Below are positions 60,001 through 63,000 of a stretch of DNA of 64,000 nt, piece after piece. Positions within the stretch are counted from its first letter, which is position 1, and the number at the start of each line of letters is the position of its first letter. This DNA comes from Escherichia coli (GTDB lineage: Bacteria; Pseudomonadota; Gammaproteobacteria; Enterobacterales; Enterobacteriaceae). The stretch lies in NCBI RefSeq assembly GCF_030013205.1, contig NZ_CP122648.1; one strand, 5' to 3'. The position numbers are program-made.

Positions 60001-63000
60001 TACCGCATCAAGAACGTGGTCATCGCGTAAATAAGCGTGTGCAAGTACATAATCTCCAATGGCCTGGCTTTCACGTAAGCCACCACAGTGACCAATCATC
60101 AACCAGACATCCGGGCGCAGCACCGCCAGATGATCGCAGATGGTTTTAGCATTTGACGGTCCCACGCCAATATTCACCAGAGTAATACCCTGACCATCGG
60201 CGGTAATTAAATGCCATGCGGGCATCTGGTGTTTTTTCCATGCAAGGTCGGAAATGGCTTCTTCTGGCGCTTCGGTTTCGGCGGTGATCCAGTTCCCGCC
60301 AGCACAAGAAAGGGCAATGTAGGGACTATCAGGATCGAGGATCTGGCTGCATCCCCAACGAACGAATTCATCCACATAACGTGTGTAGTTGGTAAACAAG
60401 ACGAACGGCTGAAAATGTTCAACTGGCGTACCGGTATAATGGCGCAACCGCGCAAGGGAAAAATCGACGCGGCGCGCATCAAAATGCGATAGCGGGGAGA
60501 ATTCCGTTGGATGATAAATGCCGTCTGCAGTTTCATCGCCAATTTGCGCCAGTTCTGTTGTCGGGAAATAGCGAGTTAACCCAGCGCTCATTGAGCGATC
60601 AAGTGTCAATTCAGAGCCATCGATGACATAAGGATAAGGGATTTCATGCTGCGAGGGTTGCACCGAGATATGCGCACCATAATCCTGATACAGCAACGTA
60701 AGTTGTTCATTGAGATACGAACGAAAGAGAGTAGGGCGAGTAATCGTGGTGGTGTAGCTGCCTGCGTGGGTAAAACGACCAAATGCGCGCGTTTTGGGGG
60801 GATTGGTTGTGCTACCGTCCCAGGTTACGGTCAGTGATGGATAGACAAAAAGACCTTGTTTGCGGGCGTTTTCATCAGGTAATTCGCCACTTGTAATATA
60901 TTTGCCAATGGCGTTGCGTAAAGCGACTACAGATTGCTCATACAGCGCGTCGAGTTTATCCAGTGCCTGAGCTGGGGTCAGACCGGAGCCCTTATTATTC
61001 ATGTGTGTCTCCTGTTCCATACAATTACCGCACATCCGATAGTATGTCACAGGAATGTGAAACAAAAGTGTAAGGCGAAGATCGGATGATCTTCGCCAGG
61101 CTATTAAGCGCGTTGATTGTCTTTCATCAACAAAGCGGTCATTGCGGAAATCAGGCATCCAGCCAGCAAATAAATAGCGACGCTATGCCAGTTCCCGGCA
61201 AAGTAAGTGATGAGTGCAGCGGCAATAAAAGGTGTAAATCCACCGCCAACCACACTGGCAACCTGATAACCGACTCCAGCGCCACTATAGCGATAACTGG
61301 CACCAAACATTTCGGTAAACATCGGTTGTTGTACACACACCACCATATCATGCGCAATGTTTGCCAGCATGATGGAGAAGAAAACTATCCAGAAAATAGA
61401 TTGTGCTTCAAGCGCCATAAAGAAAGGAAATGCGCTCAACGTTCCGAATAACGCACCTGTGATATAAACCCTGCGGCGACCAAAACGATCGGCAAGCCAG
61501 GCAAAACAGGGAATTGTCAGGCAGCTTAATCCACCGACCAGCAAACCAATATTAAGGAAAAGTTCGCGCGGTAACCCCATATTCTGGGTTGAATAATTAA
61601 GTGCAAAGGCAGTAACAATGTACATCGTCAGCAACTCGCACAGTCGTAGTGCAATAATCTTCAGGAAAGCACCGGGATGTCGTAACAGAGCTTCGATAAC
61701 CGGGATGCGTTTTTTCGCGGCCGCTTGATTATGTTGCTGTTGTTCAAATTCCGCGGACTCCTCCATGCCATTGCGCACCCACAATGCTCCCAGTACCAGT
61801 ACGATGCTAAACAGGAAAGGAATGCGCCAGCCCCAGCTTAAAAACTGTTCGTCAGTCGTCATCATACTGATCAATGAAACCAGTCCGGTTGAAAGCAGTA
61901 AACCTACTCCGTAGCCAACTTGTACACCGCTACTGTAAAAGGCTTTTTTATTTTTCGGCGCACTTTCAACGGAAAGCAACGCTGCGCCTCCCCATTCGCC
62001 GCCGACGGCAAATCCCTGAATGGCACGCAGTGTCATCAGCAAAATAGGTGCCCACCACCCAATGGTCGAGAATGAAGGAAGAATACCAATCAAGGCTGTC
62101 GCGATGCCCATCATCCAGACGGTCAGCATTAACATGCGCTTACGTCCCAGTCGGTCGCCAAAGTGACCGAAAATGACACCGCCTAGGGTCGGAAAAGGAA
62201 GCCGACACCAAAGGTGGCAAATGCGGCGAGCGTTCCCATCGCCGGGCTTACTTGCGGGAAAAACTCGCGATTAAACACCAGTGCGGCGGTAATGCCATAG
62301 AGTAAAAAATCATACCAGTCGACGACGGCACCAGCGAAACTGCCTAACGCAGCTCGTCGGGCGCGACTTAACGAAAGCGTCCCTTCATCGGGACGAGTGG
62401 AGATGAGCGTGGAGTCCATAATGATCCTGTTTGTACTGTCTTTTTATAATTAGTATGGAAAAGGTAACTCACATTGCCGTCGATCTATAAACGAACCTTA
62501 TGAGACTACCTCGACAGAGCGCATCTGCAAATGATTTTATGGCTGATTAGCGGCAACATGAAAAATTCGATGGAAGATGAAAGCACGGGCGTTGCTGGTG
62601 TTGTTTAAGGATTAAGCAGAGCACCCACAGGTTCGAGATATGAAACATAAAAGTCCGCATATGTACAAAATAGCACCCTGATGAGTCTGATAGACTGCAT
62701 TGCATTATAACCAGTAGGGAGGCGAGGTTAGGTATGTTTTTAGCATCATTGTTGAGACGTATTGCATTTAGTTACTACGATTATAAAGCTAATAATTTCA
62801 ATATTGGAAAAACAGACTTTGTTGTCATCCATATTCCCGATCAAATTGGCGATGCTATGGCCATCTTTCCAGTTATTCGGGCGATTGAAATGCATAAAAT
62901 AAAGCATCTTTTAATTGTTACTTCGACTATTAATTTAGAAGTCTTTAATGCGCTCAAACTTGAACAGACTAAATTAACATTAGTTACAATGACTATGCAG

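Follow-up and report, generated by a model that had tools for sequence, protein, structure and literature searches.

A single-base deletion interrupts the shikimate transporter gene shiA in the O139 clone of Escherichia coli from pigs and wild boar

At the position where Escherichia coli K-12 carries shiA, the 64,000-nucleotide stretch of E. coli DNA that we analysed (contig NZ_CP122648.1; hereafter, the window) contains two open reading frames (ORFs) parted by a stop codon. Such an arrangement could result from an error in the assembly, could represent a transporter that still works in pieces or by way of recoding, or could mark a genuinely inactivated gene. We consider it very probable that shiA is a young, lineage-specific pseudogene of the O139 edema-disease clone of pigs and wild boar, and that this clone has lost ShiA-dependent uptake.

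One gene in two frames

The two ORFs (Table 1) correspond to ShiA residues 1-78 and 96-438, and when the interval 61104-62419 is read in a single frame, a stop appears at codon 79, with noise beyond it. Against the NCBIfam profile NF007414, the shikimate-transporter equivalog with a cut-off of 538 bits, the 5' piece matched profile positions 1-78 (E=2.4e-42; 145 bits, below the cut-off) and the 3' piece matched positions 96-437 (E=5e-211; 701 bits, above the cut-off), so that the locus is a split shiA and not a pair of chance ORFs. The 438-aa protein obtained by restoring the frame scored 905.7 bits against the same profile, covering positions 1-437 of 438, and 500.9 bits against TIGR00883, the MFS metabolite:H+ symporter subfamily (cut-off 443 bits); Pfam domains MFS_1 and Sugar_tr were detected as well.

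The closest characterised counterpart is ShiA of K-12 (b1981), a shikimate:H+ symporter of the MFS metabolite:H+ symporter family that constitutes the shikimate uptake system of that strain (Whipp, Camakaris & Pittard 1998, cited in PMC8536597). The restored protein, likewise 438 aa long, is identical to it at 433 of 438 residues. K-12 shiA occupies the same locus, behind a 5' leader that is nearly identical to that in the window, and the K-12 gene order yeeJ-yeeL-shiA-amn-yeeN is found both in the window and in the swine isolate K_EC180, so that the orthologous position is kept. Compared with the K-12 gene, codon 78 of the window allele is short of one G, which leaves a 78-aa stub and an out-of-frame remainder. 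The equivalog match speaks for shiA ancestry, not for the present products of the fragments: an unbroken frame with 12 transmembrane (TM) helices and motif A (pattern GxxxD[RK]xG[RK][RK]) in the loop between helices 2 and 3 was not found at the locus, which, judged from its sequence, is a shiA pseudogene and not a functional member of the family.

The lesion can be placed to the base. Aligned globally with the closest intact allele among the complete genomes, that of the swine strain CFSAN018748 (L002 3105-4421; protein WP_097310193.1), the window allele shows a single difference in 1,317 nt, one lost base: where CFSAN018748 has CGACCGCTAGG on the coding strand, the window has CGACC-CTAGG. The missing nucleotide is the G of the Pro78 codon CCG (a C on the plus strand), and its loss converts CGA CCG CTA GGC into CGA CCC TAG GC, creating a premature TAG. 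Because the lost G has a C on either side on the coding strand, the position of the deletion, at a site free of homopolymers, is unambiguous. The initial annotation had described a shiA gene interrupted by a one-base deletion, with two ORFs separated by a stop, and had held that putting back one C on the plus strand restores a continuous MFS transporter frame; the ORF list and the pairwise alignment agree with the former, and the alignment with the CFSAN018748 allele bears out the latter, the frame-restored protein reading ...GFLFRPLGGVIFGHFGD....

CFSAN018748 itself lies outside the set of 19 complete genomes in which we found the O139 O-antigen cluster. Apart from the one base, its shiA matches that of the window from end to end, and its flanks are 99.9% identical to the window over 11.6 kb, but, unlike the window, it has the G in place, its yeeL is not interrupted, and its yeeJ is of full length. 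Given that the two alleles differ by one base only, the window pseudogene is young and without further damage.

Table 1 Coordinates of the features at the shiA locus (positions in the window).
Feature	Position	Strand	Description and basis
Inverted repeat, 10 bp, with a 4-nt loop	61074..61097	minus	GGCGAAGATC / GATCTTCGCC, just past the shiA stop; read from the sequence
3' shiA fragment	61104-62135	minus	343-aa ORF from Met96 to the native stop, TM3-TM12; starts MLMLTVWMMG
MFS motif A coding sequence	62139..62168	minus	G85-H-F-G-D-R-L-G-R-K94, TM2-TM3 loop; motif search and hydropathy
5' shiA fragment	62183-62419	minus	78-aa ORF, codons 1-78, MDSTLIS...GVGFLFRP, then TAG
Premature stop of the 5' fragment	62185-62183	minus	TAG; ORF list
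1-nt deletion site	between 62187 and 62186	minus	G of Pro78 CCG lost; C on the plus strand
Start of the 5' fragment	62419-62417	minus	ATG; ORF list
shiA upstream region, promoter and 5' UTR	62420..62733	minus	unchanged; three-way alignment; in K-12 the 5' UTR is the leader that responds to RyhB
yeeL, GT9 glycosyltransferase gene	62734-63633		interrupted by IS1
IS1, left part, inserted in yeeL	63635..64000	.	window ends inside IS1; K_EC180 annotation

Distribution of the deletion allele

We searched 5,426 complete E. coli genomes, in 5,339 of which (about 98%) the shiA locus is at least 80% covered, with an 81-nt query centred on the deletion. An exact match was obtained in 14 genomes, and none was detected elsewhere among the 5,426. 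The other listed matches to this query contain the extra base (98.8% identity, 82-nt span), and the 46 other top-ranked genomes that we inspected have the extra base together with a single shiA coding sequence. A longer query of 1,551 nt around shiA was 100% identical in 13 complete genomes and 99.9% identical in one more. Among public contigs, 95 carry the exact 78-aa product and 51 the exact 343-aa product; these include a contig of 5.04 Mb in assembly GCA_900450405.1 and contigs of draft genomes.

All 14 genomes with the deletion allele come from pigs or wild boar, in Korea, France, and Belgium. They are K_EC180 (swine, South Korea), O139:H1 W13-16 (wild boar, France), P15-25 (domestic pig, France), and eleven pig isolates designated 'ETEC####', the examined record of which, ETEC4069, is from Belgium. 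For W13-16 and P15-25, Illumina and PacBio reads were combined in Unicycler assemblies; both genomes have been typed as O139:H1 ST1, a Stx2e/F18 edema-disease clone (PMC8798679). K_EC180 is collinear with the window and identical to it over the 64 kb apart from four 1-nt homopolymer indels, and has the O139 wzx/wzy genes just upstream of the region that corresponds to the window. The O139 O-antigen cluster is present in 19 complete genomes, 17 of which are from swine or wild boar and share at least 99.9% identity across the cluster. The frameshift is found in 14 of these 17 clone genomes and an IS1-adjacent deletion of shiA in the other 3, so that intact shiA is missing from all of them.

The deletion is thus a real mutation of the pig and wild boar O139 clone (ST1 where typed), and the lesion, its exact position, its status as a real allele, and its confinement to one clone are all matters of observation. 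Resequencing had been proposed as the decisive check, on the expectation that an error would disappear and the frame would be restored; this check has effectively been carried out many times over, given that the deletion persists in 14 independently assembled genomes from three countries.

The three genomes with the larger deletion, EC556, EC571, and EC581, belong to Japanese O139 pig strains (the EC556 record gives Japan) and form a separate group within the clone. They share with the window the clone background and the same IS1 copy in yeeL, and their shiA is likewise non-functional, but nearly all of the gene is gone, which represents a further stage of decay. The annotation of EC556 retains a 93-nt 3' remnant of shiA that adjoins IS1, and the blastn junctions between EC556 and the window indicate that ~61199-63634 is missing, that is, about 2.4 kb including shiA codons 1 to about 407. 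We describe this deletion as IS1-adjacent because the gap begins within shiA and ends where the IS1 copy in yeeL, shared with the window, has its left end. The frameshift and the IS1-adjacent deletion may be successive rather than independent events.

Predicted consequences for the protein and its expression

A simple hydropathy scan of the restored protein, from which all TM positions given here are taken, places TM1 at ~31-49, TM2 at ~62-84, and TM3 at ~96-114. The search of solved structures gave one distant match (E=3.7e-08), the MFS phosphate transporter 9kmq_B, which was used only to confirm the alignment of motif A; the motif A stretch of ShiA aligns with GYFGDKLGRKR of that protein. 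The break falls at the end of TM2, just ahead of motif A, and the 78-aa stub comprises TM1 and most of TM2. The stretch that codes for motif A falls between the premature stop and the first canonical start of the 3' ORF and accordingly belongs to neither fragment; since the break precedes G85-K94, no product initiated at a canonical start retains the motif. In the downstream frame, we detected no ATG, GTG, or TTG between 62270, where the frame opens, and the Met96 codon at 62135. The Met96 ATG is located 47 nt past the stop and is preceded by a weak GGGA, with no good Shine-Dalgarno sequence. In RefSeq, PGAP extends the 3' part to an ATT start at 62222, giving a 372-aa product (WP_285251481.1) that is named 'shikimate transporter', and the 78-aa piece is entered as a hypothetical protein (WP_285251480.1); inspection of the sequence context of the ATT start revealed no recognisable Shine-Dalgarno sequence. 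An alternative start yielding a near-complete ShiA was therefore rejected.

The scenario that we favour is as follows. A single G would have been deleted from shiA codon 78 in an ancestor of the O139 edema-disease clone. Translation from the native start would since have ended at the TAG after 78 residues, producing TM1 and most of TM2 only, and motif A along with TM3-TM12 would be out of frame, the next canonical start being Met96 with its poor Shine-Dalgarno sequence. With the complete transporter absent, ShiA-dependent shikimate uptake would be gone, including the share that is induced by RyhB under iron limitation; in K-12, this small RNA activates shiA translation under such conditions (Prevost et al. 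2007, cited in PMC4676285). Because the break precedes motif A and TM3-12, the best-supported and a well-founded prediction is that ShiA no longer mediates shikimate uptake. We infer that ShiA has lost its function and that this loss is tolerated, the latter because a sub-lineage shows IS1-mediated deletion of the remnant.

The 314 nt upstream of shiA are identical to those of the intact CFSAN018748 allele, and the 7 substitutions that distinguish this region from K-12 all lie over 150 nt ahead of the start codon. A second lesion in the promoter or leader was considered and rejected on the strength of the match to the intact relative. Because the promoter and leader are untouched, the 78-aa stub is presumably still translated under its normal, native control, and some residual expression of the shiA fragments may occur, the 3' part being otherwise undamaged. 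On the downstream side, the inverted repeat (Table 1) is followed on the minus strand by the T-rich tail TTACACTTTTGTTT; a simple terminator scan did not call this hairpin, which is nevertheless likely to be the shiA terminator. A putative terminator at this position suggests that shiA is monocistronic, so that no polarity on amn would be expected and amn is probably unaffected.

Alternative explanations and significance

An assembly artefact, in which the organism would have a whole gene and the window's assembly would have dropped a base, would be in keeping with the single-base errors seen in long-read assemblies of this clone: that of K_EC180 has four 1-nt homopolymer deletions relative to the window, two of which make yoeB and pduG look frameshifted, both genes being intact in W13-16. 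The shiA deletion, however, is outside any homopolymer, unlike the K_EC180 errors; the same allele is present in 14 complete genomes from three laboratories, some of them based on Illumina and PacBio data, and the truncated 78-aa protein is found exactly on 95 public contigs. A homopolymer indel private to one assembly was therefore rejected, and we regard an error of any kind at this site as highly improbable. Even less credit, close to none, can be given to recoding, whereby a -1 shift at A-CCC-UAG would lead the ribosome to read CGA-CCC-CTA (R-P-L) and the break would act as a regulatory throttle. A stop codon in the ribosomal A site promotes pausing, and a -1 slip on CCC beside the stop would indeed give the wild-type amino-acid sequence, but re-pairing of tRNA-Pro from CCC to ACC costs a base pair, and a scan of the 88-nt frame overlap revealed no X XXY YYZ slippery heptamer at CGA CCC TAG. 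The sole heptamer in the overlap, T TTC CCG at 62261, is 76 nt upstream, where a shift would garble the sequence of TM2; K-12 has this heptamer too, its allele being, on comparison by eye, sequence-identical over the first 80 codons. A scan for transcriptional slippage found no homopolymer run of at least 5 at the junction, the longest runs in the stretch being T5-T6, upstream of it. Programmed shifts are, furthermore, taxonomically conserved, whereas the frameshifted allele is limited to one recent clone. On these grounds, namely, the lack of a heptamer or a run at the junction and of conservation across lineages, a gene decoded by programmed -1 frameshifting or slippage was rejected. A split but working ShiA, either assembled from the 78-aa TM1-2 piece and a TM3-12 piece or represented by the 372-aa PGAP product, has somewhat more in its favour: both pieces are undamaged behind an intact promoter and leader, the 343-aa piece still clears the equivalog cut-off, and RefSeq names the 372-aa product a shikimate transporter. 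Pieces of split LacY permease (N2/C10 and N6/C6 experiments) reportedly complement in trans, and the shiA break, near the TM2/TM3 boundary, resembles the N2/C10 case in that N2- and C10-like pieces are encoded. In contrast to split LacY, both shiA pieces lack the motif A loop, which is missing from the Met96 product as well as from the 78-aa piece, and the C-terminal piece has no proper translation start: no ATG, GTG, or TTG precedes Met96 in its frame, the PGAP ATT has no recognisable Shine-Dalgarno sequence, and Met96 itself lies 47 nt past the stop behind its weak GGGA. The loss of nearly the whole shiA remnant in a sub-lineage likewise argues against a function that has been kept, and we consider a working split transporter very unlikely.

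Another question is whether the loss, real and inactivating as it appears to be, was selected, in which case it would mark an adaptation of the edema-disease clone; it might, for example, keep out a toxic shikimate analogue or, in the pig gut, rewire the handling of iron and siderophore precursors. What speaks for selection is that intact shiA is missing in all 17 clone genomes, yet is kept in about 98% of E. coli, and that ShiA is linked to iron limitation through RyhB, as attributed to Prevost et al. 2007 in PMC4676285. The IS1 deletion may, however, have simply removed a shiA that was already dead, and other genes within the same 64 kb are decayed as well, namely, pduS, yeeL (by IS1), and two integrase remnants, so that general relaxed selection or drift in a clonal pathogen is favoured. 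Public E. coli and Shigella assemblies commonly contain ShiA fragments truncated at other lengths, many of them partial sequences at contig ends. Altogether, selection strikes us as an unlikely cause. Similarly, little weight attaches to the more speculative proposition that the lesion is a selected, clone-defining loss, in the pig gut, of the RyhB-activated import of shikimate, a precursor of siderophores and aromatics, or else leaves low-level transport by a split permease or a rare slip at CCC-UAG.

The interrupted shiA of this clone is nothing new in kind: it is an ordinary frameshift pseudogene, the transporter gene from which it derives is well characterised, and RefSeq already contains the deletion allele in 14 complete genomes. 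Its significance is modest, and nothing in it would surprise a specialist. In a literature search judged by title and abstract, we found no papers on a shiA lesion in E. coli O139, and the word 'pseudogene' is absent from the O139:H1 genome paper (PMC8798679). The 'shiA' entry in PMC8477403 is a row in a gene-presence table and is uninformative on the lesion.

Several practical points follow from the allele itself. The RefSeq entries for the shiA remnants belong flagged as a frameshifted pseudogene, and gene-content analyses that score shiA as present in genomes of the clone are misled. The clone is predicted to be unable to import shikimate via ShiA, which would bear on aro-auxotroph designs for vaccines and attenuation, and the predicted loss would also bear on the RyhB and iron regulon in strains of the clone. 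The coding-strand sequence CGACC-CTAGG is an unambiguous marker for the O139 edema-disease clone of pigs and wild boar, with a possible use in typing.

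The propanediol operon and the pduS tract

The operon encoding the propanediol-utilisation (pdu) microcompartment is present complete in the window, and of the 5,426 complete E. coli genomes only 645 have the segment that encompasses pduS (window 23100-24560). On the 3' side of the cobalamin riboswitch, there is only a small hypothetical ORF followed by cobUST, and no cbi genes come after the riboswitch in the window.

In place of a single pduS, the window contains two ORFs, of 241 and 216 aa, because the gene carries a run of G10 on the plus strand where intact E. coli pduS has TGGTGTGT; on balance, 2 nt have been added there. 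The swine strain CFSAN018748, which lies outside the O139 set, has G8 at this tract and, additionally, a separate 4-nt deletion. Across the genomes of the O139 edema-disease clone, the 1,461-nt pduS stretch spans from 1,460 to 1,463 nt, so that the tract seems to vary in length among them, from about G9 to about G12; only some of these lengths would yield an in-frame pduS. The tract is either hypermutable and possibly phase-variable, or else its apparent variation is homopolymer noise from long-read sequencing. The state seen in the window is matched by W13-16 and P15-25, French clone genomes from wild boar and domestic pig, respectively, both of which were assembled from Illumina and PacBio reads.

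Coordinates of the features discussed (window unless a locus is named)
Feature	Position	Remarks
IS200C transposase gene	15976-16434	between plaP and sbcB
pdu operon	21799-38770	with pocR and pduF
pduS	23152-24497	codes for a 4Fe-4S protein of the pdu operon; on the minus strand; G tract 23824-23833
Cobalamin riboswitch	38859-39033	
tRNA-Asn	~47483-47558	
Integrase gene, frameshifted	~47720-48981	
Integrase gene, frameshifted	~50949-51540	
RHS repeat core protein gene	~53021-57013	
yeeL	62734-63633	GT9 glycosyltransferase gene; adjoins shiA
IS1 in yeeL	63635-64000	window end falls within the element
yeeJ	L004 14825-19400	inverse-autotransporter adhesin gene; K_EC180, just past the right end of the window
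O139 wzy	L008 9063-10300	annotated as frameshifted; K_EC180, upstream of the window

Homopolymer differences in the K_EC180 record

The South Korean swine genome K_EC180 differs from the window solely by four 1-nt homopolymer deletions, at window positions 12137, 14248, 31022 and 59349. Those at 12137 and 31022 cause yoeB and pduG, respectively, to be annotated as 'frameshifted'; given that the window and W13-16 each have yoeB and pduG intact, these deletions are probably assembly errors in the K_EC180 record. The wzy frameshift is probably a further homopolymer error of the same genome because, over the wzy query, the matching stretch is 1 nt longer in the other genomes of the clone than in K_EC180.

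Insertion and deletion next to shiA

In the window, yeeL is disrupted by the IS1 insertion; the K-12 yeeL is likewise a pseudogene. In EC556, an O139 pig strain from Japan, a deletion of ~2.4 kb borders the yeeL IS1 and takes the 5' part of yeeL together with nearly all of shiA. The shiA allele is also absent from the O139 pig strains EC571 and EC581, the deletion locus being described from EC556.

The tRNA-Asn island and other elements

A degenerate island containing the two integrase genes and the RHS gene adjoins tRNA-Asn. Both integrase genes are frameshifted in W13-16 and EC556 as well, and the RHS region is ~0.8 kb longer in W13-16 and in strain ETEC1701. The yeeJ gene of K_EC180 is truncated and frameshifted, with ~3.3 kb between Ig-like repeats absent compared with EC556; yeeJ is full-length in EC556 and CFSAN018748. 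The IS200C transposase gene is common to K_EC180 and W13-16.
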